Assembly (NCBI GenBank): GCA_041662725.1
Contig: JBAZRX010000007.1
Coordinates: forward strand, 1 to 53,150
Length of the DNA: 53,150 nucleotides
DNA from: Minisyncoccota bacterium
Lineage (GTDB): Bacteria; Patescibacteriota; Minisyncoccia; Phycocordibacterales; PALSA-1337
Reading direction: 5' to 3'
A program made the translations under genes and the position numbers. Below are positions 1,868-43,102 of this stretch, one piece after another; position 1 is the first letter of the stretch, and each line of letters opens with the position of its first letter. Under the pieces are notes generated by a model, which saw only the letters and a list, made by a program, of their open reading frames with translations, was not told the origin of the DNA and ran no database searches.

Positions 1868-4800
1868 TCAAACTTTTATTTCCATCGCTATGCCAAATTC
1901 TATTTTTCTAATTTTTGTAGCCTTTTTAATTACCTCTTCATTCTTGGAAATAATCTCCCTTAAATCTTCAGTAACTATAAGCGTCGCCATATCAGTAACC
2001 GATAAACCTTTATCTTTACGCATATCCTGAATCTTACGCAAAAGTTCACGAAGATCACCTTCTTCCTTAAGTTCTGGAGTTATTGTGGTATCAAGCTCTA
2101 TATCAGATTCAATTTCCGCACCAAATACAACATTCTTAATATTTATTTCATCCTTTATAAGATTAATTGAGTTGTTATCTAGAATATGTCTTTCTTTTAC
2201 TCTTAAAGTACTTAATGGCTGACGAACATTTATTTTTACTTTCATCCTTGCTTCAAGCCCTTTTGAAGCTATATCGCGAACAACTTTCATTTTATTCAAT
2301 AGTTCGGTATCAATTTTTCCAGCAACTGGCCATTCTTCTAAATGAACAGATTCTTTATCACCGCCAATTCGTAAATAAATATCTTCCGCCAAGAAAGGCA
2401 TAAAAGGAGCTAATAATTTAGCTACCTCATTTAAAACAAAATGAGTAGTTTGTAATGCTGAATTCTTATCAGCTTCATCTTCACCTTTAAACCTGTCTCT
2501 TGAACGACGTAGATACCAAGTAGAAAGATCATCTGTAAAATCCAAGAATGGTCTAGTTGCTCTATCCAATTCCCCTTTTTCCAAACTATCAGTGACAATA
2601 CTTACTAATTCATTCAACCTAGTAATAATCCATTTATCTAGAATATTTTCCGATTTAATTTTTACGTTTTGCGTTTTGCCTTTTGCACTATCTTCATACA
2701 TCTCATAAAAAGAAACTACATTCAAAAATCTATTCACAACTTTTTTAGTTATTTCATCAACCCCTTTTTCGCTAAAACAAAGATCTTCTCCATGTACAAC
2801 CGGTGAAGACATCAAGTAAAAACGTAGTGAATCTGCTCCATATTTATTTACAATCAACATCGGATCTGGGAAGTTTTTCTTTGACTTTGACATCTTCTCG
2901 CCATCTTCTGCTAAAACCAACCCATTAACAATAACTTTCTTAAAAGGAGATTTACCAAACAAAGCTACACCTAAAACTAACATGCTGTAGAACCAGCCAC
3001 GAGTTTGATCCAGTCCTTCAGCGATAAAATCAGCAGGATAACCATGAGACTTATGGAAAAGTCCGGAAGTAGGATCAAATTGAGATTTTCCATCTGCATC
3101 TTTTTCAAACGGATAATGCGCTTCACCGTAAGGCATTGAACCAGATTCAAACCAACAATCAAAAACATCAGGTACTCTAATAAGTTTATTTCCATTCTCA
3201 GTCTTTAATTCTAAATCATCTATATAAGGACGGTGTAAATCTAGTTCATAATCAGAATTATGAGGTAATGGGACAAAATTTAATGGTAATACTCTAGCGT
3301 TACCAATAAGTTCTTTCTCACTGCGAAGATCTAGTGCCTGTTTTTTGTTTAAACCATTGGCAACTGCAATTAAAAGAAATATTGGTGTCTCGTGAGAGAT
3401 GATAAGAATATTTTTACCTTTGTATTTATTCTCAAGATCATAAATAAAATCACCAACACGTTTTTTAATATCAGAATAAGTTTCACCACCTTCAGGACCA
3501 CGGTCAAATCTTTCCTCATGCTTAAATTCATTAATAAAATCAGAAACTTTCCTACCATTCCAAACACCTGCATCTAATTCTCTAATTCTACTATCAATAT
3601 GTATTTGCTCTTGCTTCCAATCTAATTTTTCTTTCAAGATGTTCGCAGTTTCTATTGTTCGTACAAAAGGAGAAACAAATATGAGATCAAAATGTTTATT
3701 TTTTAAAGATTCAGCTGTTTCATTGACTTGTTTTTTACCATTTACAGTTAGATGATGTGGTGCATCTGGTTCCCCACTAATAAAACCACCAACATTATTA
3801 TCCGCCTCACCATGACGTATAACGTAGTAAGTATTTTTTGCTTGACTATATTTACTTAAATCTTCAACAGAACCTATAACATGATAATTTTCTTTACCTT
3901 TATTATTGTTTACACTTTCAATTTGTTCCTTCCAAACAGGAATCGGCGCACCCCAGAATCTACTTCTTGAAATAGCCCAATCTCTAGCCCCCTCAAGCCA
4001 ATTACCGAATCTAGCACTACCAACTTCCGGTGGTACCCAAGTGACTTTATTATTTTCAGCAACCAGCTTATCTTTAATGCTTGGAACATTAACAAACCAA
4101 GAAGATGCCGCGTAATTCAAAAGAGGTGTATTACAGCGCCAACAATGAGGATATGAGTGAATCAGTTTTTCTTTATCAAATAACCTATTGTTGTGAGCCA
4201 GCCATTTGATAACTTCTATATCAGCTTTCTGATGTGCATTTTTATCTTCATCGGTATCTTTCGGTTTTACACTCATATCCGCAAAATCAATAACTTCTTT
4301 TTTGAATTTACCATCAGTAGATACATGCTGAACAAAAGGTAAACCATATTTCTTTAGCATTTCATAATCATCTGAACCAAAAGCTGGCGCAATATGAACG
4401 AGACCAGTACCATCTTCAATAGTTACGAAATCAGCACCATAAATTTTCCAACCATTTTTTAGACTTTGATCTTTTGAATAATAATCAAACAAAGGTTCAT
4501 ATTCCATTCCAATCAGTTTTGAGCCATGAATGGTTTCAATAACTTCGTATTTAATATCTTTTAATATCGTCATTGCTAAAGCAGACAATCTTTCCTTAGC
4601 AAAAATAAATTGACCTTTTTTCTGTTCATCCCCTTCTGTAATTCTTATCTTTATATAATCAATCTTCGGATTTACCGCCAATGCCACATTCCCCGGCAAA
4701 GTCCATGGTGTTGTCGTCCACGCTAAAAGATATATATTACTATCTGAATTCTGCGCGTTATTTTTGAGATTTGAGATTTTTCCGCCAGCTGATAGATTGA

Positions 4801-5518
4801 GATTGAATTTCACATACACCGAAATATCTGTTATGTCTTTATACCCTTGTGCTACTTCAAAATTAGACAGTGTTGTCTCACAATGCGGACATAAATTCAT
4901 AGACTTGAATCCTTCATATATCAAGCCCTTTTCATATAAATTCTTGAAAATCCACCAAACACTTTCTGTATAGGTTGCATCCATCGTGCGGTAATCGTTA
5001 TCCATATCAACCCACCTTCCAAGTCTAGGAATAATTTTCCTCCATTCATCGGCATAACACATAACACTCTCGCGTGCGGCTTCATTAAATTTACCTATAC
5101 CGTAGTCAATAATATCTTTCTTACTTTTCAAACCAAGTTCTTTCTCAATCAAATTTTCTACCGGTAAACCATGACAATCCCAACCCCAGCGTCTACGTAC
5201 ACTGTAACCTTGCATAGTTTTCCAACGAGGAATAACATCTTTAATTGTTCCAGCTAAAATATGTCCGAAATGTGGTGTTCCTGTTGCGAATGGCGGGCCA
5301 TCATAGAAGGTAAAGCTACCTTTCGGAGATTCCGATTTTGTTCCAATGGCATTAGAAGAATCCGCCCTTGTTCCGCCACCTGTAAACTTATTAAGAGTCT
5401 TTTCAAAAATACCTTTCTCTTTCCAAAAAGCCAAAATACGCTCCTCACGTTCTGCGTGTGAGGTTTTTTCTTGAACATCCTTGTCAGTCGTTTGATTTGA
5501 ATCGCTAATATCAGCCAT
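1868..5518 (-). CDS. ileS: Isoleucyl-tRNA synthetase (type 2) with an internal histidine-phosphatase domain
   Basis: FYDGPPFATGTPHFGH, GWDCHGLPVE, WTTTPWTLP, AEGLDQTRGWFY, KMSKS; an insert with RHG lies between GSVEDL and DLHRPYID. Confidence 0.95.
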   Translation of the reverse strand: MADISDSNQTTDKDVQEKTSHAEREERILAFWKEKGIFEKTLNKFTGGGTRADSSNAIGTKSESPKGSFTFYDGPPFATGTPHFGHILAGTIKDVIPRWKTMQGYSVRRRWGWDCHGLPVENLIEKELGLKSKKDIIDYGIGKFNEAARESVMCYADEWRKIIPRLGRWVDMDNDYRTMDATYTESVWWIFKNLYEKGLIYEGFKSMNLCPHCETTLSNFEVAQGYKDITDISVYVKFNLNLSAGGKISNLKNNAQNSDSNIYLLAWTTTPWTLPGNVALAVNPKIDYIKIRITEGDEQKKGQFIFAKERLSALAMTILKDIKYEVIETIHGSKLIGMEYEPLFDYYSKDQSLKNGWKIYGADFVTIEDGTGLVHIAPAFGSDDYEMLKKYGLPFVQHVSTDGKFKKEVIDFADMSVKPKDTDEDKNAHQKADIEVIKWLAHNNRLFDKEKLIHSYPHCWRCNTPLLNYAASSWFVNVPSIKDKLVAENNKVTWVPPEVGSARFGNWLEGARDWAISRSRFWGAPIPVWKEQIESVNNNKGKENYHVIGSVEDLSKYSQAKNTYYVIRHGEADNNVGGFISGEPDAPHHLTVNGKKQVNETAESLKNKHFDLIFVSPFVRTIETANILKEKLDWKQEQIHIDSRIRELDAGVWNGRKVSDFINEFKHEERFDRGPEGGETYSDIKKRVGDFIYDLENKYKGKNILIISHETPIFLLIAVANGLNKKQALDLRSEKELIGNARVLPLNFVPLPHNSDYELDLHRPYIDDLELKTENGNKLIRVPDVFDCWFESGSMPYGEAHYPFEKDADGKSQFDPTSGLFHKSHGYPADFIAEGLDQTRGWFYSMLVLGVALFGKSPFKKVIVNGLVLAEDGEKMSKSKKNFPDPMLIVNKYGADSLRFYLMSSPVVHGEDLCFSEKGVDEITKKVVNRFLNVVSFYEMYEDSAKGKTQNVKIKSENILDKWIITRLNELVSIVTDSLEKGELDRATRPFLDFTDDLSTWYLRRSRDRFKGEDEADKNSALQTTHFVLNEVAKLLAPFMPFLAEDIYLRIGGDKESVHLEEWPVAGKIDTELLNKMKVVRDIASKGLEARMKVKINVRQPLSTLRVKERHILDNNSINLIKDEINIKNVVFGAEIESDIELDTTITPELKEEGDLRELLRKIQDMRKDKGLSVTDMATLIVTEDLREIISKNEEVIKKATKIRKIEFGIAMEIKV

Positions 5519-7802: not shown

Positions 7803-9035
7803 TTAACGTAATATTTTGTCAATCTTAACCGCAATTGCTTTAAAATCCTTCTCTTTTCTACCTCTGGTAGTCTCAGCAGCTGTACCTAATCTTATACCGG
7901 AAGGATCTGCTGGTGGTCGTGTATCAAAAGGAATTGCGTTCTTATTTACAATAATCCCCTGCTTTTCCAGCCTATCACTTGCTTCTTTTCCAGAGATAGC
8001 ACCTGCACCCTCGGCATTTTTCACTCCCCCATTCCATGTATCTATAAGAATCAAGTGGGTATCTGTACCACCGGAAATTATACGCCAACCACGTTTTTTT
8101 AATTCATCTGATAAAACTTTTGCATTTTTTATTATTTGCAAAGCATGTTTTTTGAATGCAGGAGTTGCCGCTTCTTTCAAAGCTACTGCTACTCCAGCAA
8201 TTTGATTGATGTGTGGACCACCTTGTAAACCAGGAAAAACTGCCTTATCTATTTTTTTATCAAGTTCACGAGCGTCTTTTTTAACAAAAATTAAAGCCGC
8301 GCGAGGACCACGAAGAGTTTTATGGGTAGTAGTAGTTACTATATCAGCAAATTTGAATGGTGAAGGATATACACCACCAGCCACAAGCCCTGCAATATGA
8401 GACATATCTACCATCATCAATGATTTAACCGTTTTATCTACTCCAGCAGATTGAACAATTGAAGGTGGGATAGAATCAACAACTTCTCTTATTTTCTTCC
8501 AATCAACAATACGTGGATAAGCTGTAAAGCCAGACACAACCACTAAAGGTTTTTCTTTGATAGCAATTTCACGTAATTGATCATAATTCAAAACTTCAGT
8601 AGTTGAATCAAGTCCATAAGGCACCTGCACCCAGAATTTTCCTGTAGCAGAAACTTTATGACCATGTGTCAAATGTCCACCATGTGCCAAAGACATACCC
8701 ATAATCTTTCCTCCTTGAGGAACACAAGCTAAATAAACTGCTAAGTTAGCTGGAGAACCCGAAAGCGGTTGTACGTTAACATGCCACTCATTTGGATTAA
8801 GACCAAAAAGTTTAAGTGCTCTTTCCTTGCAAAGATCCTCAATCTTATCTACATTTTCATTACCACCATAATAACGAAGCTTGGAATACCCCTCAGCATA
8901 TTTATTTGTAAGTTCCGAACCAAGAGCCAAGAGTACATCTTTCGAAACGTAATTTTCCGACGCGATTAGGTTGATAACTTTTTTCTGACGCTTTTTCTCT
9001 GCCTCTATTAGTTTTTTTATTTGTGTGTCTTTCAT
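7803..9035 (-). CDS. glyA: Serine hydroxymethyltransferase
   Basis: LIASEN, NKYAEGY..RYYGG, VQPLSGS, HGGHLTHG, TTTTHKTLRGPR, FPGLQGGP. Confidence 0.97.
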   Translation of the reverse strand: MKDTQIKKLIEAEKKRQKKVINLIASENYVSKDVLLALGSELTNKYAEGYSKLRYYGGNENVDKIEDLCKERALKLFGLNPNEWHVNVQPLSGSPANLAVYLACVPQGGKIMGMSLAHGGHLTHGHKVSATGKFWVQVPYGLDSTTEVLNYDQLREIAIKEKPLVVVSGFTAYPRIVDWKKIREVVDSIPPSIVQSAGVDKTVKSLMMVDMSHIAGLVAGGVYPSPFKFADIVTTTTHKTLRGPRAALIFVKKDARELDKKIDKAVFPGLQGGPHINQIAGVAVALKEAATPAFKKHALQIIKNAKVLSDELKKRGWRIISGGTDTHLILIDTWNGGVKNAEGAGAISGKEASDRLEKQGIIVNKNAIPFDTRPPADPSGIRLGTAAETTRGRKEKDFKAIAVKIDKILR

Positions 9036-9213
9036 ACCGAAATCGTATCACTTTTATGTATAAACAAAAAGGGGTGTGCGATATTATTCGCACACCCCAA
9101 TACCAAGCAGAGAAGAGGAAACTGCTTCATGAAATAGCAAATTAAGGAACAAATATCTACACAACAAGATTAGCTTTTATTGATAAAAAAGTCAATCTAC
9201 AATTTATCCACAG

Positions 9214-9260
9214 TTTAGAGGCATCGCCTCGAGGCGAAGCCTCGAGGCGATGCCTCTAAA
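9214..9260. repeat. Perfect 22-bp inverted repeat with a GAA loop
   Basis: TTTAGAGGCATCGCCTCGAGGC-GAA-GCCTCGAGGCGATGCCTCTAAA between divergent glyA and thyA. Confidence 0.9.
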
Positions 9261-9311
9261 ACATGATATAATCGCCGTATAATTATTAAAATTATTTTTA
9301 ATACAACCAAC

Positions 9312-10223
9312 ATGAAACCATATTCCGAAAGAGTTCCTGATACACAATATCGTGACCTGTTAAAGAAAATACTAGAAAACGGAGTGAGAACCAATACTCA
9401 ACAAGAAGTAGATGCTATCACCTATATGGGCGCAGGCTCTATGCATTTCAAAATGTCAAATGGTTTTCCGATGATTACCGAGAGAAATATGAATCCGAAA
9501 GTTTCTGAAATGCTCAAGGTAACCGTCTGGCAACAAGCTATCGGTGAAATTCTTGCTTTTGCCAATGGTGCAAGAACATTGAAAGCTCTTGAGGAATTTG
9601 GTTGTTTCTGGTGGGATCCATGGGGCACTGAAGCAAAATGTAAGAAACGAGGACTTGAAACTGGAGATTTAGGTCCAGGAAGTTACGGTGCCGCTTTCCA
9701 TGATTTCCCTACTTCCGAAGGCCCAGCTTACAATCAATTCAAAAATATTATTGAGCAAATAAAAGAATTCCCTCACTTGCGTACACATTTCATCACTCCA
9801 TGGATACCTCAATACACTATTCGTGGTACTGGCAAACAACAAAAAGTCGTTGTAGCACCTTGTCACGGCTGGATACATTTACGTGTTTTGGATAATAAAC
9901 TCACCTTACACATGATCCAACGTTCAGGAGATGTGCCGATAGGAGTACCGTCAAACATGGTTCAATACGCCGCATTACTCCTTGCTATTGCCCAAGTCAC
10001 AGGAACTGAGCCTTATGAATATATTCATACTATTTCTGACGCACATATTTATGTCGATCAAGTTCCAGCTGTAGAAGAAATGTTGAAACGTGAACCAAGA
10101 GCCTTCCCTACAATATCTATCAATCCTGATAAGAAAGATCTGTTTGAATTCCGTAAAGAAGATTTTACTCTTTCAGATTACAATCCTCATCCAGGAATCA
10201 AGGGTATACCTGTGGCTATATAA
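9312..10223 (+). CDS. thyA: Thymidylate synthase (divergent ThyA)
   Basis: APCHG catalytic Cys, QRSGD, GVPSN (Asn that specifies dUMP), DAHIY. Confidence 0.93.
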   Translation: MKPYSERVPDTQYRDLLKKILENGVRTNTQQEVDAITYMGAGSMHFKMSNGFPMITERNMNPKVSEMLKVTVWQQAIGEILAFANGARTLKALEEFGCFWWDPWGTEAKCKKRGLETGDLGPGSYGAAFHDFPTSEGPAYNQFKNIIEQIKEFPHLRTHFITPWIPQYTIRGTGKQQKVVVAPCHGWIHLRVLDNKLTLHMIQRSGDVPIGVPSNMVQYAALLLAIAQVTGTEPYEYIHTISDAHIYVDQVPAVEEMLKREPRAFPTISINPDKKDLFEFRKEDFTLSDYNPHPGIKGIPVAI

Positions 10224-10250
10224 TTCCAAATAATTCGAGAAAATACATTC

Positions 10251-10724
10251 ATGAGCAAATATATTATTACCGACAATGTTCGCCGAGAAGATCAAAAGAA
10301 AGTCATGGCTGAGATAGAAACTGCCAATCACTGTCCTTTCTGCACAGAAAATCTTTCCAAATATCACAAAAATCCTATTCTAAAAGAAGGTAAATTTTGG
10401 ATCTTGACTGACAATCAGTGGCCTTATGAGAAAATAAAACATCAGTTATTGGCTATTTACAAAACCCACATAGAACACATTTCTGAAATGGATCCAGATG
10501 CGGGTCGAGAGCTTATTGAGCTTTTCAAAGAAGAAGCTATGAAAAGAAACATTCCTGGCGGAGGTCTAGCTATGCGTTTTGGTAGTAATCCGGAACATGG
10601 TTCTTATGGTAATAGCGTACTTCATATTCACGCACATCTGATTGAACCTGATTTAGACGCTCTCAATCCTGATGAATCTTGGAAGTTTAAGTTTGGACAA
10701 CCAAAAAATTACAAAAAAGAGTAA
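10251..10724 (+). CDS. HIT-family nucleotide hydrolase
   Basis: CPFC zinc motif, NQWPY, LHIHAHLI triad. Confidence 0.8.
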   Translation: MSKYIITDNVRREDQKKVMAEIETANHCPFCTENLSKYHKNPILKEGKFWILTDNQWPYEKIKHQLLAIYKTHIEHISEMDPDAGRELIELFKEEAMKRNIPGGGLAMRFGSNPEHGSYGNSVLHIHAHLIEPDLDALNPDESWKFKFGQPKNYKKE

Positions 10725-10729
10725 ATGAA

Positions 10730-10757
10730 AAGCGTAGCATGATTAAGTGCTACGCTT
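10730..10757. terminator. Probable bidirectional terminator between the convergent HIT genes
   Basis: AAGCGTAGCA..TGCTACGCTT stem. Confidence 0.6.
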
Positions 10758-10805
10758 ATTGATTAAACTGGAAAGTAATTAAAGAAAGTTACGTTAGTGA
10801 TCTGA

Positions 10806-11417
10806 CTAACAACTTCCTTTCGGTGCAATCTTACCGTCGATAAGTATAAACTCCTCGGGCGATAAACCATTGAGCTTATCCTTACCAGCCTCCTCGTTTT
10901 CCAACATCTTTTTGAAAACAAGTAGTATTGGTAACTTCTTTTGAAGATCTTTTTCAGACTTCGCAATTGTAATCTCTACACGTTCCTTACCGGTCGGCAC
11001 GTGATGGTTGAAATGAAAATGTGGCATGCTCCGAGCATTTCTGGCCGGGTCACCAGAACGCATAACCGACACTGAACCGGTTATATTGAAATCACGGTCA
11101 ATCTTCTGAACTATGGCTAACAAATCACAAACTTCAGCAAATGTAAGTTCACTAAAACTCTGAACGTGCCTTCTGCACGGAATTACAAACTGATGTTCTT
11201 GACCAGCTTGTGGTGCAATAGTGTTCTCCATAACCACCCAGTGTTCAGTCTCAAAATGAACTGTATTGAATTTTAAATCAATGTTACAAAAACCACATCT
11301 TCCTACACGAAGATCCTGAACCTTCTTGTAGAAGTAATGATAGTTACTACAATTGAATAATTGCCAGATATCAGAAGGATTAACTCCTTCAACAGCAAAA
11401 CTCTCAAAGATACTCAA
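10806..11417 (-). CDS. HIT/GalT-like protein (variant triad)
   Basis: CGFC, HWVVMEN..P, HVQSFSELT, MPHFHFNHH. Confidence 0.65.
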   Translation of the reverse strand: MSIFESFAVEGVNPSDIWQLFNCSNYHYFYKKVQDLRVGRCGFCNIDLKFNTVHFETEHWVVMENTIAPQAGQEHQFVIPCRRHVQSFSELTFAEVCDLLAIVQKIDRDFNITGSVSVMRSGDPARNARSMPHFHFNHHVPTGKERVEITIAKSEKDLQKKLPILLVFKKMLENEEAGKDKLNGLSPEEFILIDGKIAPKGSC

Positions 11418-11522
11418 TTAAAAGCCTTTCTCTTTTTATCACTTGATTGTGATAATCTAAGCATCACCTTAATCAATAGAACATCCAATGTCAATGTATT
11501 GTGTATGTCTACAACATATTAC

Positions 11523-12389
11523 CTACTCCGTCTTCACAAACACAATCTCCACCCCCCTACTCTTTAGAATCCTCTCACCATCAAGCACACCATAGCCATC
11601 GGCATAATATATTTTTTTAATACCGGAATAGGCAATCATTTTGGCGCATGGCGGACAAGGAAAAGTAGTAGCATACATTTCTGCACCTTCGAGAGATATC
11701 CCCATCCTAGCCGCATCTGCGATCAAACCAGCTTCAGCGTGTAAAACAGTAGATAATTCAATATTCACTCCTTTATGAAAATCACTGCGTGGATCACCTT
11801 CCACGTAAGGTAGTAACTCCGAAGGAACAGCGTGATTGTGCCTAATGAGAATCATTTTTCCATCTTTCACGATAGCCGCGCCAATACGTCTCCAAAAATC
11901 TGAACTTTTCTCTGCTTCTTTTTTCAGAAGTGTAATAATTTTCTTATCGGAATCTTTTATTGAAATAGTCTGATCAGCTTCAACCGGTCTACTTTCCATA
12001 GATTTATGTTTATCCCAACGCAAAAAAATTGAATCAAAAACAACTTTACTTTTAGGTAAATATTTTTCTTGAAGTTCATGCATCACATCTTCATCAGGCA
12101 TGATAATGCTTATATCAGGCTCAGTAAGCTTCTTCCAATCTTCTACAGAATTCAAAATCTCAACACTTTCAAATCTTTTCCAAGCAGTCAGAGAATTTCT
12201 AATAAGTTCTGCTGGCAAAGCACGAATATCTTTAGCCAATGGTACAAATGATTGTGCAATTTCATTTCCAAGTAAAAAAAGTTTAACCGCATCAACATGC
12301 TTTTCAAAAAGTCTATGATAACCTTCATGCAAAACAGGAATATAAGCAATAATAATTTTCGTCTTTGCTTTAGTATGCTTTTTTTTCAT
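11523..12389 (-). CDS. dCMP/cytidine deaminase-family protein with an N-terminal nucleotidyltransferase-like domain
   Basis: C-terminal HAEAGL and FPCPPCAKMI zinc motifs; N-terminal AYIPVLHEGY resembles a degenerate HxGH fold. Confidence 0.85.
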   Translation of the reverse strand: MKKKHTKAKTKIIIAYIPVLHEGYHRLFEKHVDAVKLFLLGNEIAQSFVPLAKDIRALPAELIRNSLTAWKRFESVEILNSVEDWKKLTEPDISIIMPDEDVMHELQEKYLPKSKVVFDSIFLRWDKHKSMESRPVEADQTISIKDSDKKIITLLKKEAEKSSDFWRRIGAAIVKDGKMILIRHNHAVPSELLPYVEGDPRSDFHKGVNIELSTVLHAEAGLIADAARMGISLEGAEMYATTFPCPPCAKMIAYSGIKKIYYADGYGVLDGERILKSRGVEIVFVKTE

Positions 12390-12426
12390 ATAAAATCGTA
12401 ATCAGGCGCCACGAATTATTGTCAGA

Positions 12427-13053
12427 TTATTTACTACGCTTCTCTTTCGTTTGGCCCAAAGCCGCGCTGATCATATCAGCTAATTTTGGCACGATAGCTT
12501 TTTCAAAACGCTTAGCCAACTTGAGTTGAAGCAAGCGAATCTTGGCACTGGTTGAAGTTGTAGCCATTGGAGCCAAATTGATAACTTTTCCACAATATGA
12601 ACTCATTTCGGCTATTTCTTTCTTTGAATATTTCTCCAATGTTTCTTTGGTAACAATCAAAACATCCGGTCTAACAGTCTTTATAAGATGCCAACGTGGC
12701 ATATCTTTCTCTTTCAAAGTTACAATATCAACAGACCTCAAATGAGTAACCATTTCTAGACGTTCTTCTTGTGGCACAATAGGACGATCTGGTCCTTTTC
12801 TAGCACGAACTTTCTTGTCACTATCAACTCCAACAATCAATAGATCGCCGTGTTTTTTTGCTTCCTCAAAATAACGTCCATGGCCAATATGAACCATGTC
12901 ATAAGTACCTTGAGTAAGGACAACTTTTAATCCTAAACCTTTGCAATGATTAACAAGCTTATTTAGACGATCATAATTCGGCACAAAACGATCTTTAAAA
13001 TTCGAACCTAGCGCAAATATTCCTTCATTCGTGATAAATCCTTTAGTGGTCAT
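12427..13053 (-). CDS. HxGH cytidylyl/adenylyltransferase (RfaE-II/GCT-like)
   Basis: GTYDMVHIGH, LIVGVDSD, KGPDRPIVPQEERLE, STSAKI. Confidence 0.88.
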   Translation of the reverse strand: MTTKGFITNEGIFALGSNFKDRFVPNYDRLNKLVNHCKGLGLKVVLTQGTYDMVHIGHGRYFEEAKKHGDLLIVGVDSDKKVRARKGPDRPIVPQEERLEMVTHLRSVDIVTLKEKDMPRWHLIKTVRPDVLIVTKETLEKYSKKEIAEMSSYCGKVINLAPMATTSTSAKIRLLQLKLAKRFEKAIVPKLADMISAALGQTKEKRSK

Positions 13054-13136
13054 GTTGTTTTTTATTTATTAGTATATGAAGTATAATCCTAGTATAGGAA
13101 ATTGCATAGGTGACAAATAATAATTTTTAATATCTT

Positions 13137-13637
13137 ATGAAAACATTCATCATTGCCGCTTTGACCGCCGACGGCTATATCGGTAAACATTCTACCCACG
13201 CCGCTATGTGGACTAGTAAGGAAGACAAGAAACGCTTCATAGAGATCACCAAACGTGCGGGTGTGATCATTATGGGCCAGAACACTTGGAAAACCCTTGG
13301 TAAGCCTCTCAAGGACCGTCTGAATATCGTCTATTCCCCTACTCCTCTAGAAGGTATAACTGAAGGTGTTGAAGTTACCATAAAGAGTCCCACTGATTTA
13401 CTTAAAGATTTAGAAAACCGTGGTTTCAAAGAAGTTGCCATTTGTGGTGGTTCACAAATCTATACTATGTTTATGAAGTCAGGACTTGTTGATACACTTT
13501 ATTTAACTATTGAACCAATAGTTTTTGGTGACGGTATGAGATTGTTTAAAGAGGATATGGATTTTAAATTGAAACTTATAAGCTGTGTGCAAACCGAAAA
13601 TGGTTCACTGCTATTGGAATACAAGGTTGAAAAGTGA
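13137..13637 (+). CDS. folA: Dihydrofolate reductase
   Basis: IIAALTADGYIG, IMGQNTW, PLKDRLNIV, ICGGSQIY. Confidence 0.93.
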   Translation: MKTFIIAALTADGYIGKHSTHAAMWTSKEDKKRFIEITKRAGVIIMGQNTWKTLGKPLKDRLNIVYSPTPLEGITEGVEVTIKSPTDLLKDLENRGFKEVAICGGSQIYTMFMKSGLVDTLYLTIEPIVFGDGMRLFKEDMDFKLKLISCVQTENGSLLLEYKVEK

Positions 13638-13750
13638 AGAAATTTAATACTTCGTGGCTCTACCACATGAAAGGATCCAGGGCTTGCCTCATTGCTATTA
13701 AACGTATACCTATGGTAAGAATAATGTAAATAGCACACTGAAAGGAGAAA

Positions 13751-14359
13751 ATGAAAGTAAAATATTTCGTTATTCCTGGTGGTTCGCCACCTTTTCGTGG
13801 TAGTGCGAATGCAACAGGTTATGATGTTCATGTAAGAGCCGTCGTTTCAACAGAATTTGATCCTACCGAGATTTACAAACGTAAAATAATATACGATTTA
13901 CGTTCAGAACCAAATAATGAGGAAATTAAAAAACTTGTTATATTTCAAGATGGTCAGTACAAATACCTTCTTCAACCTGGAGAATCTGTAAATATTGGTC
14001 TTGGTCTTGTTTTTGGTATGAAACCAGGTTGTTCAGCTGTAATAATGAGGCGAAGTTCAACTGGATTAGCCGATATTGCTTTTGCTGATTTGTTTTCGAA
14101 TGAGCCCGAAACTCCAAAAACAATTATAGAGATGCTAGGAGGTATTCCTATTGATTCAGATTTCCGAGGTGAACCAATTTCACGACTTCATAATTTAGGA
14201 AAAGTATTTTATCCTATCTGGCACGGAAAACGGATAGTACAAATTGTTTTCTTAAACAAAAAAGGTATCTTTCATCCAAGGTTTGAAAGAGTTGAAAAAA
14301 TCAGTGATCTAGGTTTTACTAAAAGAAAAAACCATTGCCATGGATCGACGGGACTTTAA
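13751..14359 (+). CDS. dut: Trimeric dUTPase (divergent, with insertions)
   Basis: Motifs ATGYD, RSS, IDSDFRGE, RIVQ and C-terminal HGSTG. Confidence 0.8.
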   Translation: MKVKYFVIPGGSPPFRGSANATGYDVHVRAVVSTEFDPTEIYKRKIIYDLRSEPNNEEIKKLVIFQDGQYKYLLQPGESVNIGLGLVFGMKPGCSAVIMRRSSTGLADIAFADLFSNEPETPKTIIEMLGGIPIDSDFRGEPISRLHNLGKVFYPIWHGKRIVQIVFLNKKGIFHPRFERVEKISDLGFTKRKNHCHGSTGL

Positions 14360-14523: not shown

Positions 14524-14946
14524 TTACTTTACATCCACTCCCATAGACCTTGCTGAACCAGCAACAATCTTCATAGCCGCCTCAACTGTATTAGCATTCA
14601 AATCTGGCATCTTCTTTTCTGCAATTTCTTTTAACTGAGCCTTGGAAATAGTACCTACTTTGCTTAAATTAGGTTTACCTGAGCCTTTATCTTTTTTCAA
14701 AGCTTTTAGAATCAAACTTGAGGCTGGAGGAGTCTTTAGAACAAAAGTATATGAACGATCCTCGTAAACTGTGATAACCACAGGGATCATATCACCAATC
14801 TTGTCTTTCGTGGCATCATTAAACTTCTTGGTAAAATCTCCAATATTAACACCCGCTTGACCCAATGTTGGACCTAAAGGAGGAGCTGGAGTAGCTTTAC
14901 CTGCTGGAGCGAGAACTTTTACTTTTTTTATGATTTTCTTTGCCAT
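14524..14946 (-). CDS. rplK: 50S ribosomal protein L11
   Basis: [34 protein letters not shown]. Confidence 0.98.
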
Positions 14947-16942: not shown

Positions 16943-16978
16943 ATATGGAGGGCTACCCTTAAGGGCTACCCTCCATAT
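16943..16978. repeat. Hairpin repeat overlapping the folD 3' end
   Basis: ATATGGAGGGCTACCCTTAAGGGCTACCCTCCATAT. Confidence 0.9.
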
Positions 16979-17835
16979 TCGCACCAATCCACCAAATTCT
17001 CAAAAAGAGATATCACTGTCATTGGTCCTACCCCGCCAGGAACTGGTGTAATCGCTGAAACAATATCTTTTACAGATTCAAAATCAACATCGCCAACGAG
17101 TTTTTTCCCTTGGATTTCATCATCTAACTTTTCTCCGATTACAGTATTTATACCAACATCAACAATTACCTGCCCTTCTCTCACGTGTTTAGCATTAATA
17201 AGTCCAATCTTACCAACAGCAACAATAATAACATCAGCTTCTTTTGTCTCTTTAGCAAGATCAGTAGTTTTGCTATGACAAACTGAAACCTCAGCACCTT
17301 CGTTTAAGCACATCGCAGCTATTGGTTTACCAACAAGCGCGGAACGTCCGACTACGACAACTTTCTTACCTTTTAGACTGATATTATATTTTTTAAGCAA
17401 TGTCCGAACACCACGAGCTGTGGCTGGCATAATAGAGCCTTCTTTACCTTCAGACCATTTTTTTACATTCACAGCAGTAAGAGCATCCACATCTTTTTTT
17501 GGATCAATAGCATTTATAACAACGTCGCGATCAAGGTTAGCTGGTAATGGTAACTGCACAACAATACCTTTGATCACATCGTCATTATTACAATCCTCCA
17601 CAGCTTTAATAACGTCATCTATTGAAACTGTTTCAGCCAATTCAATGTGCTTAACATCAACTCCGATTTTGACTGCAAAGTTTTTCTTGGCACGGATAAA
17701 AGAATTGGAATCATCACGATTACCAACTTGGATAATAGCTAGAATTGGCTTGATAGAAAGCTTCTCCACCCTCTCTTTCAAGGCTGGAATGATAGAATCT
17801 CGAGTTTTACGGCCATCTAAAATGATTGCTGACAT
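16966..17835 (-). CDS. folD: Methylene-THF dehydrogenase/cyclohydrolase
   Basis: GIVVQLPLP, KDVD, PATARGV, VVGRSALVGKP, ITPVPGGVGPMT; probable start MSAIILDG. Confidence 0.96.
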   Translation of the reverse strand: MSAIILDGRKTRDSIIPALKERVEKLSIKPILAIIQVGNRDDSNSFIRAKKNFAVKIGVDVKHIELAETVSIDDVIKAVEDCNNDDVIKGIVVQLPLPANLDRDVVINAIDPKKDVDALTAVNVKKWSEGKEGSIMPATARGVRTLLKKYNISLKGKKVVVVGRSALVGKPIAAMCLNEGAEVSVCHSKTTDLAKETKEADVIIVAVGKIGLINAKHVREGQVIVDVGINTVIGEKLDDEIQGKKLVGDVDFESVKDIVSAITPVPGGVGPMTVISLFENLVDWCEYGG

Positions 17836-17865
17836 AATGAAAAAGCATAGCATATTTTGGAAGTA

Positions 17866-25964: not shown

Positions 25965-26969
25965 CTATATCTCCAAACCGAAAATTTTCAAAAGTAGAGC
26001 CGCGCGGATATATTGTCCATTATCCGCCTGTTCAAAAAATGCTACTTGAGGTAAATCGTCAACCTCTGTACTAATCTCCCCAACCCTTGGTAAGGGGTGC
26101 ATTAGAATTGCTTCTGGTTTGAACAATTTCATTTCTTTCAAACCAATATGAAATGCATCACGAAATTCAACGAAACGCGATTGATCAATAAGACGTTTTT
26201 TTTGAACTCGTGTCCAATAAACAACATCAGCCTCTGGTATAGCTTTATTTAGATCATTGGCAACTGTCCACTCTGTGCCAGATTCGTTTAGATGATCCGT
26301 AATATCTTGGCCCATAGCTAGTTCTGGCGGAGAAATAAAAATAATCTTAACTCCGTTGAATTTAGATAGACTATATGCCAACGAACGACAAGTTCTGCCG
26401 TTAGCCAGATCACCTCCAATAACAACTGTAATATTGTCCAATCTATTAAGCCTGCGCCAAATAGTATAAACATCCAGCAAAGCCTGTGTTGGGTGTTGCC
26501 CTATCCCATCACCAGCATTGATAATAGCTACCTTACCAGCGTAATATTTATCTATCACCGCCGCCGCTCTTTCTGCCGCACCGGTTTCTGGATGACGAAG
26601 AACGATAACACTAGGTCGTTGTCCAGCCAAAATTCTTATCGTGTCTTCCAAAGACTCCCCTTTAGCAACAGATGAAAACTTTGTCGCGTCTTCTGTAAAG
26701 CAAATGCCCATACCGAGCATCTCGCCCGCCGACCAGAAAGAGAATCTTGTACGGGTTGATTCCTCATAGAATATCTCGTACATTTTATACCCTTCTAATA
26801 GTTTCTTCATTTCCATGATTCCAATATGATCATCCGCTTTTTTCCGGATACGATCAGCAAGATCAAAGTAATCGAAGATAACTCTAGGCGAAGCGAATTG
26901 CTGTGCCCTCAAAATATGCATTCTTGGTTTTACAATGTTCATAATCAACACCTTCTTCCTTTCTTCCAT
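25965..26969 (-). CDS. pyrB: Aspartate carbamoyltransferase
   Basis: FYEESTRTRFSF, KGESLEDT, INAGDG..QHPTQALLD, MHPLPR. Confidence 0.96.
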   Translation of the reverse strand: MEERKKVLIMNIVKPRMHILRAQQFASPRVIFDYFDLADRIRKKADDHIGIMEMKKLLEGYKMYEIFYEESTRTRFSFWSAGEMLGMGICFTEDATKFSSVAKGESLEDTIRILAGQRPSVIVLRHPETGAAERAAAVIDKYYAGKVAIINAGDGIGQHPTQALLDVYTIWRRLNRLDNITVVIGGDLANGRTCRSLAYSLSKFNGVKIIFISPPELAMGQDITDHLNESGTEWTVANDLNKAIPEADVVYWTRVQKKRLIDQSRFVEFRDAFHIGLKEMKLFKPEAILMHPLPRVGEISTEVDDLPQVAFFEQADNGQYIRAALLLKIFGLEI

Positions 26970-27072
26970 TGCAAATACTATGCTTTTTGACTACCTTGTC
27001 AATGAGATAAGACAACAATAAAAATAAAACTCGCATACCGAAGCATGCGAGTTATTCGTAAACGATTAAATA

Positions 27073-28167
27073 TCAACTAACGATTTTCCAATAAAGAAAC
27101 TCGCCTCCTTTGAAAACTTTAACCGTTTCAATTTTCTGCGGAATTGAGAACGCTATCTGTTCTATTTCCATCATTTCTGAGCTAACCTTCATACCATACA
27201 AGCTAAGAAAATTCTCAGATAGAAACGAGCCGAGATGCTGTAAAGCGTTTTCCTCGGCGAAAACTGTTGTGTATAATTCAACAGCAATCGGTGCAGTAAA
27301 GATTCCAGCTGCACAACCGTAACAACGTGACTTTGCTTGCTCGTCATGTGGCGCTGAATCTGTTCCAGCTCCAAAACGAGGATTTCCTGAAGTTGCATAA
27401 CTGCGTATCTTTTGCCGATGTATTTCTCGTTTTGGCACCGGCTTACAATAATTACATGGGTTCATACCGCCCCAAAACATAGCATTGCGATTGATCATCA
27501 AATGATGAGCAGTTACAGTTGCCTGAATATTGTAACAAGTAGATTCTGCAATAAAGTCAGCAACACGGCCATCAGTCAAATGCTCAAATACTACTGGTAA
27601 CGCTGGGAAACTTTTAAGCAGTGGTTTGAGATCACGTTCAGTAGAAACAATCTCTCTATCAAATTCGTCAACGTTTTCTTCAACCGCTTCGAAATGTCCG
27701 AGAAGTGGAATTCCTTTCTTCTGCATTGCTTCAAACACTGGATATCTACCGCGAAGATTCTTAACCCCGTGTTGTGAACCAGTCGTTCCTCCTTGACCAT
27801 TTTGATTGGCCATATAGAGCTTCACTGCACACCAAGCTTTCATATCAAATCCTCGTACAACTTCTTCAGGAGTTATATCGTCTGTAAGATAACATGTCAT
27901 ACGAGGCATAAAATATATATCTCTGATCATTGGACCCATATCATTTTTACGAATGAGATCATCCAACACTCCATTAATCCGCTTCCGATATGCAACTGCT
28001 TTTTCAACAGTTGATGTTTCATCAGGATGTTTGAGATTGCCCATAATGACAGCTCCAACAGCACGTTGATTTATTGTGCATGGTAGAACCGTTTTGAGCA
28101 TTTCACCATCACGAATGTGTAGGTGACGATCAAACCATCTGGGAATAGTAATTTTGTTTGTTTTCAT
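27073..28167 (-). CDS. pyrC: Dihydroorotase (type II)
   Basis: HLHIRDG, MTCYLTD, AVKLY, FEHLT, HHL, GTDSAPH; ATGA overlap with pyrD. Confidence 0.92.
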   Translation of the reverse strand: MKTNKITIPRWFDRHLHIRDGEMLKTVLPCTINQRAVGAVIMGNLKHPDETSTVEKAVAYRKRINGVLDDLIRKNDMGPMIRDIYFMPRMTCYLTDDITPEEVVRGFDMKAWCAVKLYMANQNGQGGTTGSQHGVKNLRGRYPVFEAMQKKGIPLLGHFEAVEENVDEFDREIVSTERDLKPLLKSFPALPVVFEHLTDGRVADFIAESTCYNIQATVTAHHLMINRNAMFWGGMNPCNYCKPVPKREIHRQKIRSYATSGNPRFGAGTDSAPHDEQAKSRCYGCAAGIFTAPIAVELYTTVFAEENALQHLGSFLSENFLSLYGMKVSSEMMEIEQIAFSIPQKIETVKVFKGGEFLYWKIVS

Positions 28168-29033
28168 AAACTTTCTCTTTGTACAATGTATGTTGGCCTC
28201 CACGGAGTCCGTAAATGAATTGCACCAAAACTAATAGCTTTAGCACCAAGTTTTCTAACCCGATCAAGGTCATCAATTTCCATAACGCTCGGTCCAATAA
28301 CTGGAAGTACTCCTTGTCTGGACAATTCTTCTACAGCTTTCCAATTGCATTTCTGTGCAGGTTTACCAGACACACCACCACCTCCACCACCAACTTTTTC
28401 TTCAAGTTTCCATAGAGGAGTCTTTTCTCCATTCGGAAAAGCTGTTTTCCACGGAACACTATTCAGAGATATTGCTTCTGCAATATTTTTAAGCCCATTA
28501 GCAATGGTTAAATAGTCTTGATCAACAGAAACTTTTACAATAATCGGATAACGTGAAGCATGTTTGACCGCCTTCACACTATTTATGACAGCTTCAGCTG
28601 TTTGCATTGCGTGACCGGTATTCGGACACGATGGGTTAACTTCCAGAGCTACAAGCTCAAAAGAATTGAGCATGTATGCCATTTCAGTTAATTCCTTCTC
28701 GTCACCGAAAATTGATCCAACAAGAGGAAACTTGAGAAAATCTAAATGTGGGCCAATTTCTTTGCACCACCATTCAATACCTGGATTAGTTAGTCCAACC
28801 TTGTTAACCGAACCTCCGGGGATAAGACGAACACATGTCCAAGGTTTCCACCATCGCAGATTCCCTGGTCGTGGATGACGTGTCAAAGTTTTAATAACAA
28901 CCGTAAAAAGTTCTGGCTTTATAATACCAAGCCATGCAAGCGGTTTTTCCCAAAACCAACCTTTACCATCAAAAGCTAATGCCCCACTTGCGACCATGTA
29001 TTCGAAAGCATGGTCATTTGAAAAAGTAATCAT
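28164..29033 (-). CDS. pyrD: Dihydroorotate dehydrogenase (family 1-like)
   Basis: NKVGLTNPG, EVNPSCPN, PIIVKVS, GGVSG; lies in an operon with pyrC/pyrB. Confidence 0.82.
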   Translation of the reverse strand: MITFSNDHAFEYMVASGALAFDGKGWFWEKPLAWLGIIKPELFTVVIKTLTRHPRPGNLRWWKPWTCVRLIPGGSVNKVGLTNPGIEWWCKEIGPHLDFLKFPLVGSIFGDEKELTEMAYMLNSFELVALEVNPSCPNTGHAMQTAEAVINSVKAVKHASRYPIIVKVSVDQDYLTIANGLKNIAEAISLNSVPWKTAFPNGEKTPLWKLEEKVGGGGGGVSGKPAQKCNWKAVEELSRQGVLPVIGPSVMEIDDLDRVRKLGAKAISFGAIHLRTPWRPTYIVQRESL

Positions 29034-29619: not shown

Positions 29620-30105
29620 CTAAACTAAATCTTCCTCCTCTTTCAAATTGTAATTTATTATTTTTGCAGAATATTCTGCAGTAGACGGCTTATCAAATAG
29701 AAATTTCCCTTTAAATTTCTTCCCCTTAAGAAGTATTGGTAACCAATGAATATCATCTGACCACATTTCATTAAATGGTATTACATCCTTATTAAACCAT
29801 TGTGGTCTCATTTCTTCAGTTTCTATTGGTTCCCCTACAAATACATCCGTATGGAAAATATGTACTTCCAAAATTTTAGAATCATTCTGAAATTCAAAAT
29901 CAATAATTCCAGCTTTTCTTATACTACTAGATATGATTCCGGACTCTTCTTCAAGTTCCCTTCTTGCCGCCTCTTCAATTTCTTCACCAATCTCAACCTT
30001 TCCACCAAAACCATTCCACCTACCAGCACCAAAACCTCGCTTTTTCATACCAAGAAGTATTTTCTCATCTTTAGTTACAATACAAAGAGTTAATTGCTTT
30101 TTCAC
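29620..30105 (-). CDS. NUDIX hydrolase (MTH1/8-oxo-dGTPase-like)
   Basis: KKRGFGAGRWNGFGGK, Nudix box GEEIEEAARRELEEESG, MWSDD. Confidence 0.92.
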   Translation of the reverse strand: MKKQLTLCIVTKDEKILLGMKKRGFGAGRWNGFGGKVEIGEEIEEAARRELEEESGIISSSIRKAGIIDFEFQNDSKILEVHIFHTDVFVGEPIETEEMRPQWFNKDVIPFNEMWSDDIHWLPILLKGKKFKGKFLFDKPSTAEYSAKIINYNLKEEEDLV

Positions 30106-34196: not shown

Positions 34197-35309
34197 TCAG
34201 CGGAGCGCCAGTGTTTCGCCGGCGTACTCCAAGCCCTTCGGCTTGATGACCACCTTCTTGTCGCCGTTTTCGATGTGACCGGCACGATAAGCCCGCAGTC
34301 CGAGCTTTTTCGCGACATGAACGACGGCATCAGCATGGGAATCAAGAACATAGAGAGCAAAGCCAGCTCCCATGTTGAGATTGCCGTAGGCCTCGGTGTC
34401 ATCGACCGGTCCATGCTCCTGCAGGAAGTCGAAGATCGGGAGCTGTGTTGGGAGGGTTTCGATCACGTATGTGAAAGGCTGCGTTGCTCGCATCAGCTTG
34501 CGCCAGCCATGGCCTGTGACGTTCACAGCGTAATGAACATCGACGCTCTGATTGAGGCAGTCCTCGACGAGACCGACATAAATGTGTGTCGGATCGAGAA
34601 GTGTTTCACCGTAGGTGCGGATACCGACCTTTGTTAGATAGCCCATCGGCAATTTGTCCGCGATCTTCCGCGCCAGCGTAAGTCCGTTCGCATGAATGCC
34701 GGAACTCTCGATGATGACGATCGCATCGCCGTGCCGAATCTTGTCGCTTGTGATCAGGCGTTCCTTGGGCTTGACGAGTCCCATCGCCGAACCGGAGAGC
34801 ACTACCGCTTCCGGGACCACAACACCTTTGAGGGTTGGCGTTTCGCCTCCTCCCCAAACGCACCGAGCCATGTCGCAGGCATTCTTCCAACCATTCACGA
34901 GGTCATGTGTGCGCTTCTCGTCATTGAACCAATCGGATGCGCCGACTGCGAGATGCATCGCCACCGAAAGCGGCAGAGCACCGAGAGTTACGAGATCATT
35001 CACGATCATGGCGACTGTGTCCTGCGCGATCTGGTCGTAATACGATTTGCCGGTGAGCTTGTACATCGCATCGGCGACCAGATTCTTTGTGCCAAGGCCT
35101 TCCTCGACATGGGCAAAGTAGCTTTTGGCCGCTTCGATGAGATAGGCGCTTTCGCCACGGCTCGCCTCGAGTTCCCGAAACTCACCGCCATTGAGGCGAC
35201 TGATATTACCGGCTGTTTCCCGTCCGGCAATCTGTGCCATCCGTTTGAATGGGTCCATAGCGTCATAGTTAACGCCGGTGCCCGCATAGGTCATATTCTG
35301 TTTTTTCAT
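34197..35309 (-). CDS. purM: Phosphoribosylformylglycinamidine cyclo-ligase (AIR synthetase)
   Basis: YAGTGVNY, EGLGTK, AMIVNDL, GGETP, SSGIHANG, NVTGHG, LNMGAG. Confidence 0.93.
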   Translation of the reverse strand: MKKQNMTYAGTGVNYDAMDPFKRMAQIAGRETAGNISRLNGGEFRELEASRGESAYLIEAAKSYFAHVEEGLGTKNLVADAMYKLTGKSYYDQIAQDTVAMIVNDLVTLGALPLSVAMHLAVGASDWFNDEKRTHDLVNGWKNACDMARCVWGGGETPTLKGVVVPEAVVLSGSAMGLVKPKERLITSDKIRHGDAIVIIESSGIHANGLTLARKIADKLPMGYLTKVGIRTYGETLLDPTHIYVGLVEDCLNQSVDVHYAVNVTGHGWRKLMRATQPFTYVIETLPTQLPIFDFLQEHGPVDDTEAYGNLNMGAGFALYVLDSHADAVVHVAKKLGLRAYRAGHIENGDKKVVIKPKGLEYAGETLALR

Positions 35310-35437
35310 GAATTTTCCTTTTGTTGAACTAGTTCTAATTGAATACTACCCATAGGTATTGAAAACGCAAGCCAGATTGACAATATCCCGAAAACGACTA
35401 GTCTTTAATTCCAGACAACGAAAGGAAAAATTGATCT

Positions 35438-43098: not shown

Positions 43099-43102
43099 AA
43101 TT

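Follow-up and report, generated by a model that had tools for sequence, protein, structure and literature searches.

Nucleotidyltransferase, deaminase-fusion and HIT genes in a conserved thymidylate module of Patescibacteria, with a possible nucleotidyl relay to dUMP

A thymidylate gene module with three additional enzyme families

In a stretch of 53,150 nucleotides from a Minisyncoccota bacterium (contig JBAZRX010000007.1 of assembly GCA_041662725.1; the whole stretch is hereafter called the window), we identified a cluster of thymidylate genes at positions 7803–14359 that also encodes a stand-alone HxGH nucleotidyltransferase (NTase), a deaminase with an additional N-terminal domain (N-domain), and two HIT proteins, HIT1 and HIT2. 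The cluster is a module of two tightly coupled halves, one consisting of the NTase and the N-domain-deaminase fusion and the other of thymidylate synthase (ThyA), dihydrofolate reductase (DHFR) and HIT1. The three additional enzyme families probably represent a step in the supply of thymidylate that has not been described before. The reading that we favour, while giving it somewhat less than an even chance, is that the locus is one copy of a Patescibacterial thymidylate-supply module with a nucleotidyl relay leading to dUMP. Judged by their motifs, all partners in the module appear catalytically intact.

The open reading frames (ORFs) of the window were scanned with Pfam and NCBIfam, and promoters and terminators were read from the sequence with the help of a consensus scan. 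The genes named in an earlier note, made from the letters of this DNA alone, were borne out in kind and position by the ORF listing and the family models. A literature search, which included the main comparative paper on metabolism of the candidate phyla radiation, returned no description of the module, of DHFR-HIT fusions or of NTase-deaminase fusions, and in databases the proteins bear generic names ('deaminase', 'dCMP deaminase', 'Ap4A HIT family hydrolase'). Few pathways are understood as well as thymidylate synthesis, which is a classic drug target, and here three conserved, uncharacterised families with intact catalytic motifs are built into it in hundreds of species of Patescibacteria. 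This suggests either a missing reaction or an unrecognised organisation or regulation of dUMP and dTMP supply in a major bacterial radiation that is largely uncultivated and relies on its hosts for nucleotides.

Conservation of the module

The deaminase fusion falls into about 1920 clusters at 90% identity, of which all the named ones belong to Patescibacteria or Paceibacterota. It occurs in at least 306 species-level genomes, a lower bound since the scan covered one genome per GTDB species and used exact peptide patterns. Gene neighbourhoods were counted in 81 non-redundant loci, drawn from the best 80 of the 306 species hits and three other loci, whose ORFs were typed with iterated hidden Markov models (HMMs) seeded from the window proteins. 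The lineage labels of these loci include Taylor-, Zambryski-, Moran-, Uhr-, Kaiser-, Vogel- and Woesebacteria as well as WWE3.

In 80 of the 81 loci the NTase gene directly precedes the deaminase gene. The median gap between the two is 2 nucleotides, 76 of 82 measured pairs are separated by at most 40 nucleotides, and many overlap by 1–4 nucleotides. In 73 loci a thyA-(folA)-HIT1 unit is convergent to NTase-deaminase and lies within about 2–4 kb of it; seven of the eight remaining loci stop at contig ends. HIT1 follows thyA or folA in every one of the 73 thyA-containing loci, with a gap of at most 100 nucleotides in 62 of them, a value to be read only as a bound because the automatic choice of start codon overestimates the gap by about 57 nucleotides (there is a conserved internal Met). 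HIT2 was found in 51 of the 81 loci, a count subject to the fact that the HMMs merge HIT1 and HIT2 and that in divergent lineages the best score tells them apart only approximately. It occurs in either orientation, and can therefore belong to either transcription unit. The position of folA also varies among relatives, where three alternatives were seen, all of them inside the module.

The core is kept where the flanking genes differ, as with gatB/miaA/thrS/dnaE and gyrB/pheT in loci L084–L086, and with other flanks in L035, L036, L044, L047, L048, L064, L068 and L074. Further genes of deoxynucleotide metabolism occur nearby, namely a DNMK-like dNMP kinase (21 loci), thymidylate kinase (Tmk, 14 loci), a YfbR-like HD 5'-deoxynucleotidase (nine loci) and nucleoside deoxyribosyltransferase (four loci), together with Nudix genes. 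With recurrence in at least 81 other genomes, the clustering greatly exceeds what chance would produce. The earlier note had let its proposal stand or fall with the co-occurrence of the accessory genes in other genomes, and in our survey this co-occurrence held across diverse Patescibacteria.

Clusters of ThyA, DHFR, dCMP deaminase and dUTPase genes are familiar from the thyA-folA (dfrA) operons of Firmicutes and from cd-td-frd of phage T4, which the module resembles in this respect. To our knowledge, neither of those systems contains an HxGH NTase, HIT proteins or a cytidylyltransferase-like N-domain on the deaminase. In the present module, by contrast, the NTase, HIT and N-domain belong to the constant gene set, and in some cases fusions join them to the known enzymes.

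Natural fusions between module members

Several natural fusions tie the accessory enzymes to the thymidylate enzymes, and go beyond synteny. In one protein of 469 amino acids (P0276), found in two independent ENA assemblies, NTase, N-domain and deaminase form a single chain, and its gene is accompanied by genes for a 315-amino acid DHFR-domain protein and ThyA. On the other side of the module, DHFR and HIT1 are encoded by a single in-frame ORF in L048 (from WWE3) and in L075. A search seeded with the L048 protein recovered at least 13 full-length clusters of this architecture (P0280–P0292; 295–328 amino acids), most of them 38–46% identical to the query and one 92% identical. In the contexts of P0282, P0286 and P0289 (loci L084–L086) the gene order is thyA followed by the DHFR-HIT1 gene on one strand, convergent to NTase followed by deaminase on the other. 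The earlier note had proposed that the extra enzymes belong functionally with the thymidylate genes, and both the adjacency in essentially every complete locus and these fusions uphold that view.

The conservation might also reflect synteny inertia, with the NTase and HIT proteins having unrelated housekeeping roles (a surface-glycan or cofactor NTase and Hint-like hydrolases) and the gene order merely being preserved. In agreement with such an explanation, secE-nusG-rplK, which is unrelated to thymidylate, adjoins the module in about 60 of the 81 loci, so that conserved adjacency alone is no proof of shared function in this lineage. Moreover, all sampled genomes are from one phylum, and the nearest relatives of the NTase (RfaE domain II, ECT and TagD) serve envelope synthesis. 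However, NTase-deaminase and HIT1-DHFR fusions occur in independent lineages, the NTase and deaminase genes commonly overlap or lie 0–4 nucleotides apart, and the core stays intact while the flanks and the position of folA vary. Genes for envelope glycans, in addition, are neither present in the window nor recurrent in the loci. We thus regard synteny inertia as distinctly unlikely.

In the DHFR-TS of protists, too, DHFR is fused to an enzyme that adjoins it in the thymidylate cycle, which implies channelling or fixed stoichiometry. In the present fusions, however, the partner of DHFR is not ThyA. It is HIT1 in the proteins described above, and we also observed a 395-amino acid protein (P0315) in which DHFR is joined to Tmk (PF00186 and PF02223). 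The latter architecture indicates that DHFR tends to fuse with enzymes acting next to ThyA.

The stand-alone nucleotidyltransferase

The NTase (12427–13053, minus strand; 208 amino acids) ends 37 nucleotides upstream of the deaminase gene and resembles RfaE domain II and ECT. It matches PF01467 with 77.2 bits (threshold 21), and carries both the HxGH motif (H55-I-G-H58, reading HIGH) and a motif like ISSTxxR (ATTSTSAKIR). H55, G57, H58, RKGPxRP and ATTSTSAKxR are invariant in an alignment of 42 homologous sequences, and for this reason the NTase is almost certainly an active enzyme, with a specificity that is not assignable from its motifs. It scores 105.6 bits with TIGR02199 (RfaE domain II/HldC), under the equivalog cutoff of 181.5, and 32.7 bits with the TagD model TIGR01518, under the cutoff of 165.4. 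The best matches in a profile search of the PDB were ECT (3elb, 94 bits) and HldC (5x9q, 79 bits); the protein also resembles archaeal RibL-type enzymes such as 3glv. In PHROGs it matches phrog_7878, a phage family of the heptose-1-phosphate adenylyltransferase type.

HldC (RfaE domain II) is the closest single-domain relative and shares the layout of motifs. In contrast to HldC, the module NTase stays below the equivalog cutoff, has no heptose or lipopolysaccharide (LPS) genes around it and is found in a deoxynucleotide context. Pfam annotation of the remaining ORFs of the window yielded no genes for LPS, teichoic acid, heptose or envelope glycans, in agreement with the earlier note, which had remarked on the lack of LPS and teichoic-acid genes that would account for an enzyme of this type.

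The deaminase and its N-terminal domain

The deaminase gene (11523–12389, minus strand) encodes a fusion protein of 288 amino acids, of which PF00383 covers only residues 147–263. The deaminase domain itself (residues ~147–288; 11523–11951) matches this family with 56.7 bits against a threshold of 25, has intact HAE and PCxxC motifs, and contains four residues (H217, E219, C245 and C248) that are invariant among 44 homologues. By sequence its best PDB matches are the dCMP deaminases of S-TIM5 and T4, and a Foldseek search with the model of the full-length protein returned dCMP deaminases for all of the top 15 hits (E 2.5e-11). The score with the ComEB model TIGR02571 (53.5 bits) is under the cutoff of 219.45, and the architecture differs from a single-domain enzyme. 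By motifs, sequence and predicted fold, the domain is of the dCMP-deaminase type. A tRNA-deaminase reading was considered and rejected.

The N-domain (residues 1–142; 11964–12389, minus strand) is predicted to adopt a cytidylyltransferase-like Rossmann (HUP) fold. It was modelled separately with AlphaFold2, since Foldseek results for the full-length protein were dominated by the deaminase domain, and gave a beta-alpha Rossmann-like structure (pLDDT 87, pTM 0.78). The best Foldseek matches of this model in the PDB were TagD, PPAT, 3glv and CCT (2b7l, 1coz, 3otw, 3glv, 3do8 and 9hsr), and the best in the viral database BFVD were ECT, NMNAT and cytidyltransferase-like proteins. At the position of HxGH the domain has an invariant H21-E-G23-Y24 (HEGY), which departs from the catalytic motif. 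K53, R56 and the motifs PVLHEGY, KDIRAL, MPDED and FLRWDKH are also conserved, giving a strongly conserved, basic, pocket-like set of residues. At the sequence level nothing significant was found in the PDB (by profile), Pfam or PHROGs, and the viral contigs that we scanned held no relatives. The domain occurs in 581 representative clusters at 50% identity, nearly all of the length of the deaminase fusion, and a profile search of the representatives showed essentially no other architecture save the triple fusion P0276.

The earlier note had described the N-terminal half of the deaminase as a degenerate NTase fold. The predicted structure and its Foldseek matches, whose statistics are modest, agree with this description, but sequence similarity does not, as comparison of the N-domain with the NTase family by hhalign gave a probability of only 5% (pairing VLHEGY with MVHIGH). 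Direct homology of the N-domain with the neighbouring NTase is therefore not claimable. A degenerate cytidylyltransferase-like fold, supported by the predicted structure and without support from sequence, is a fair description of the domain. ECT (Pcyt2, 3elb) has two cytidylyltransferase domains in tandem in one chain, an arrangement resembled by the NTase with the N-domain, and literally so in P0276. In comparison with ECT, however, the second domain here has HEGY, has no sequence similarity to cytidylyltransferases and is fused to a deaminase, and there are no CDP-alcohol genes nearby.

A nucleotide-binding N-domain followed by a zinc domain of the dCMP-deaminase type is also found in the anti-phage dCTP deaminase, where the N-domain is a kinase-like P-loop domain. 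The module might accordingly be taken for a defence system that depletes dCTP, as the deaminase matches the NCBIfam 'anti-phage dCTP deaminase' and PADLOC dCTPase models, and HIT2 weakly matches ThsC, which is of the HIT family. However, the deaminase matches span only the zinc-binding core of about 60–110 amino acids, with 66 bits against a cutoff of 400, and the N-domain is predicted to be cytidylyltransferase-like. The context is moreover a housekeeping one: hundreds of species have these genes in syntenic core operons together with thyA, folA and rplK, unlike the genes of a variable island. The probability of this explanation is next to negligible, and the limitation of the PADLOC matches to the core domain led us to reject it.

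The HIT proteins

HIT1 (10251–10724, plus strand; 157 amino acids), which contains CPFC and HIHAHLIEP, starts 27 nucleotides after thyA. Its triad (H125-I-H-A-H129) is complete; the PF01230 score is 18.7 bits, below the threshold of 21.5, and DcpS_C is also just below gathering. The family is highly conserved, with H125, H127 and H129 invariant in the family alignment, and has a distinctive conserved N-terminal segment (R..Q..VM..I...CPFC.ENL.KYHK.PI). HIT2 (10806–11417, minus strand; 203 amino acids) matches PF01230 with 24.2 bits against 21.5, has an HxHxN triad (HFHFNHH), and in the window comes last in the NTase-deaminase-HIT2 unit. It evolves fast, such that a word search gave only nine close homologues and the others were recovered by iterated HMMs. 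The two proteins are clear paralogues by their sequences (hhalign probability 99.9%).

The first two His residues of the triad are conserved in both families and the third residue is H, N or Q, with Gln confined to a minority of homologues. Since this third residue is variable, HFHFN alone is not diagnostic of a transferase. The earlier note had appealed to nucleotidyl transferases and phosphorylases of the HxHxQ type; that argument is weakened by this variability, as well as by the failure of HIT1 and HIT2 to match the Pfam families of GalT or Ap4A phosphorylase (E 0.17 for human GalT). The best PDB matches of the two proteins are Hint-like proteins and Fhit, all weak (E 0.007 or worse), and PHROGs contains no phage family that corresponds to HIT1 or HIT2. 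With Hint, Fhit and the GalT/Ap4A phosphorylase branch they share a CxxC element and, after it, HxHxH. In contrast to those branches, the module proteins match the known families weakly, have an N-terminal segment of their own, lie in an operon with ThyA and are found fused to DHFR.

The canonical thymidylate enzymes

The canonical enzymes of the module look functional from their conserved residues. The thyA gene (9312–10223, plus strand), the first gene of the thyA-HIT1 unit, encodes a canonical thymidylate synthase that passes the cutoffs of both TIGR03284 (184.8 bits against 108.35) and PF00303 (215.7 bits against 24.3). The protein aligns end to end with a solved ThyA structure (6auj), with APCH, QRSxDVxxGVPxN and DAHIY identical. 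The catalytic Cys, the QRSxD site for the dUMP phosphate and the Asn that specifies dUMP are all retained, and are at least 90% conserved in 76 relatives.

These features bear on whether the ThyA homologue and the enzymes around it produce a modified pyrimidine nucleotide through nucleotidyl intermediates, such as a hydroxymethylated or hypermodified dU or dC, as in some phages. Phage hypermodification loci do cluster ThyA-family hydroxymethylases with deaminases and nucleotide-activating enzymes. However, the ThyA of the module passes the equivalog threshold with its dUMP-specifying Asn and catalytic motifs in place, and DHFR, which is needed only if ThyA yields dihydrofolate and thus carries out a true methylation, is co-transcribed with ThyA or fused nearby. 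Tmk and dUTPase are among the neighbours, and the N-domain and HIT proteins have no phage homologues (in PHROGs and, for the N-domain, in the viral contigs). A modification route, which the earlier note had entertained next to salvage, is consequently less likely than it had seemed, and we consider base modification very unlikely.

The folA gene (13137–13637, plus strand), divergent from the NTase gene, encodes a reductase of the DHFR superfamily (PF00186, 70.8 bits against 25) that also matches RibD_C (PF01872) with 61.7 bits. This second match, a weak similarity of the deaminase to RibD and the likeness of the NTase to 3glv would fit a pathway to riboflavin and FAD, in which deaminase and reductase are the halves of a split RibD and the NTase is a RibL-type FAD synthetase. 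The deaminase is nevertheless much nearer to dCMP deaminases than to RibD (E 1e-15 against 3e-4, and the top 15 Foldseek hits), and the equivalent of folA in other lineages (L048, L075 and P0280–P0292) is a canonical DHFR fused to HIT1. In addition, ribA, ribB, ribH and ribE were not found in the window or in the loci, where the constant neighbours are ThyA, Tmk and Dut. This explanation is highly improbable.

The dUTPase homologue (dut, 13751–14359, plus strand) has an insertion in its N-terminal half. Motifs I–V are readable and its PDB matches are all dUTPases; its model scores are marginal for PF00692 (22.8 bits against 22) and below the cutoff for TIGR00576 (41 bits against 102.55). The glyA gene (7803–9035, minus strand; PF00464, 493 bits), divergent from thyA, encodes serine hydroxymethyltransferase, which would supply methylene-tetrahydrofolate. 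It is the next gene after thyA in 32 of the 81 related loci.

A possible nucleotidyl relay to dUMP

NTases of the HUP class yield products in which the nucleoside monophosphate (NMP) is held in a phosphoester or anhydride, together with pyrophosphate, and HIT enzymes cleave NMP from NMP-X, or transfer it, through a His-NMP intermediate. Given this chemistry of known relatives, the NTase and HIT proteins as a pair would form a nucleotidyl relay, and the presence of deaminase and ThyA suggests that the relay would carry a cytidine deoxynucleotide, most plausibly dCTP. We infer NMP-X or NDP-X intermediates as the most economical reading of the pairing.

In the scheme that we favour, the NTase and the degenerate N-domain probably associate as a pseudo-dimer, by analogy with the tandem domains of ECT. 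From a pyrimidine (deoxy)nucleoside triphosphate, of which dCTP is the most plausible, the NTase would form a phosphoanhydride NMP-X and pyrophosphate, after which a HIT enzyme would free the monophosphate from NMP-X. The net path would run from dCTP to dCMP to dUMP, which would be passed to ThyA and DHFR for the formation of dTMP. Such a relay would give the pool of triphosphates a connection to dUMP that needs no dCTP deaminase.

Several observations weigh against this scheme. Compared with the known dCTP pyrophosphatases, two enzymes are a more elaborate way to reach dCMP, reversed kinase reactions could also give dCMP, and no missing step demands the extra enzymes. The nearest characterised relatives of the NTase are an adenylyltransferase (HldC/RfaE domain II) and ECT, leaving its nucleotide base uncertain. 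For the N-domain, the Foldseek statistics are modest (E 1e-3 to 1e-1, TM 0.5–0.65), to which the low hhalign probability is to be added. One locus (L028) has NTase-deaminase with folA, dut and tmk, and thyA and HIT1 were not found nearby. Finally, the loci were chosen through the deaminase fusion, and the regular presence of secE-nusG-rplK beside the module counts here as well.

The main rival explanation is that the additional proteins serve regulation or house-cleaning, which we consider possible, if doubtful. The N-domain would then be an allosteric sensor of (d)CTP or dTTP, and the NTase and HIT proteins would be auxiliary and outside the main flux to dTMP, one making or sensing a signalling or side-product nucleotide and the other clearing dinucleoside polyphosphates or nucleotide adducts. 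Classical dCMP deaminases are under allosteric control by dCTP and dTTP, and in the N-domain the second catalytic His of HxGH is gone, while residues like those of a nucleotide pocket are kept. NTase-hydrolase clean-up pairs also have a precedent in nadD-yqeK, and HIT2 is fast-evolving and dispensable in 30 of the 81 loci. However, the catalytic motifs of the NTase are all invariant and the enzyme is translationally coupled, and in one case fused, to the deaminase. HIT1, for its part, is as conserved as the other partners of ThyA and is repeatedly fused to DHFR. This pattern is typical of consecutive enzymes of a pathway rather than of clean-up.

A more elaborate version of the relay, in which the route to dUMP is carrier-bound, seems rather unlikely. 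Here deamination would take place on NDP-X and HIT1 would free dUMP at ThyA. The NTase would turn dCTP (or CTP) and an acceptor phosphate X-P into dCDP-X, the N-domain would grip the diphosphate-X moiety, and the deaminase domain would change the base to give dUDP-X. HIT1, docked on or fused to DHFR beside ThyA, would then free dUMP directly, and HIT2 would proofread or recycle the carrier. If true, this would represent a new metabolic logic in which free dCMP, dUMP and dUTP are sequestered, and would provide functions for three families found throughout a large part of the Patescibacteria.

The finding would let genes that now go by 'deaminase', 'HIT family protein' or 'cytidyltransferase-like' be annotated specifically. 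The proteins concerned are small and soluble, and the fusions of DHFR with HIT and of NTase with deaminase offer ready constructs for biochemistry.

Transcription units and leader of glyA

In the window, the thyA-HIT1 unit on the plus strand and the NTase-deaminase-HIT2 unit on the minus strand converge on a terminator-like hairpin with a 10-bp stem (10730–10757), located between HIT1 and HIT2, and folA-dut diverges from the NTase gene. From its position alone, the hairpin is a probable shared bidirectional terminator. Upstream of thyA there is an extended -10 element (TGATATAAT, 9264–9272) that is conserved in locus L002.

The leader of glyA (9036–9215, minus strand) is strongly structured (minimum free energy -46.8 kcal/mol, z = -4.3), and ends in a GC-rich hairpin (9071–9098) and a T-run just 5' of the start codon. 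A hairpin and T-run occur at the same place in L002, with a different stem sequence. A search of Rfam matched no family; the leader may be an attenuator or a riboswitch-like element. Between the divergent glyA and thyA genes, beside the -10 element, lies a perfect 18-bp GC-rich palindrome, GAGGCATCGCCTCGAGGC GAA GCCTCGAGGCGATGCCTC (9218–9256), which occurs only once in the window and lacks a conserved counterpart in L002. An operator function is conceivable, as is a hairpin with which the glyA leader would begin at its 5' end.

Neighbouring genes and other features of the window

Downstream of dut are rplK, nusG, secE and a gene of the SIMPL family, followed by the more peripheral folD (16966–17853, minus strand), which was recognised by eye from its translation as encoding methylene-tetrahydrofolate dehydrogenase/cyclohydrolase. 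The gene in the position of folD in relatives carries PF00763 and PF02882, and an HMM seeded from the window folD found a homologue within 10 kb in 28 of the 81 loci. The rplK gene (14524–14946) is not followed by rplA in the window, and an L1-like ORF is near rplK in only 19 of the 81 loci. Some Parcubacteria reportedly lack ribosomal protein L1, a loss that this pattern may reflect. In five loci a homologue of CofE-like F420-0:gamma-glutamyl ligase is situated beside NTase-deaminase (for example 10987–11799 in L028 and 8020–8796 in L007), and may act on folate or another glutamylated cofactor.

Isoleucyl-tRNA synthetase (1868–5518, minus strand) contains an inserted His_Phos_1 domain (residues 565–731), an architecture shared by its relatives. 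Although the organism has a small genome, genes of the pyrimidine de novo type are found at 25965–29033, including those for an ATCase/OTCase-family protein (25965–26969) and a dihydroorotate dehydrogenase (28164–29033), along with a 376-amino acid ORF that has no Pfam match. A Nudix gene is present at 29620–30105. The region 34197–40160 is a GC-rich island (52–55% GC, compared with about 36% elsewhere) that encodes an AIRS-family protein, purH, purB and a purC-purE fusion, and looks horizontally acquired. It is followed at 40164–51309 by a defence and mobile island of 42–46% GC, with genes for a TOTE-type AEP primase-helicase, an Rv2179c-like exonuclease, a SMODS nucleotidyltransferase, LexA, a DNA methylase and a TdeIII restriction enzyme, and with a large serine recombinase gene that abuts a tRNA gene (51239–51309).

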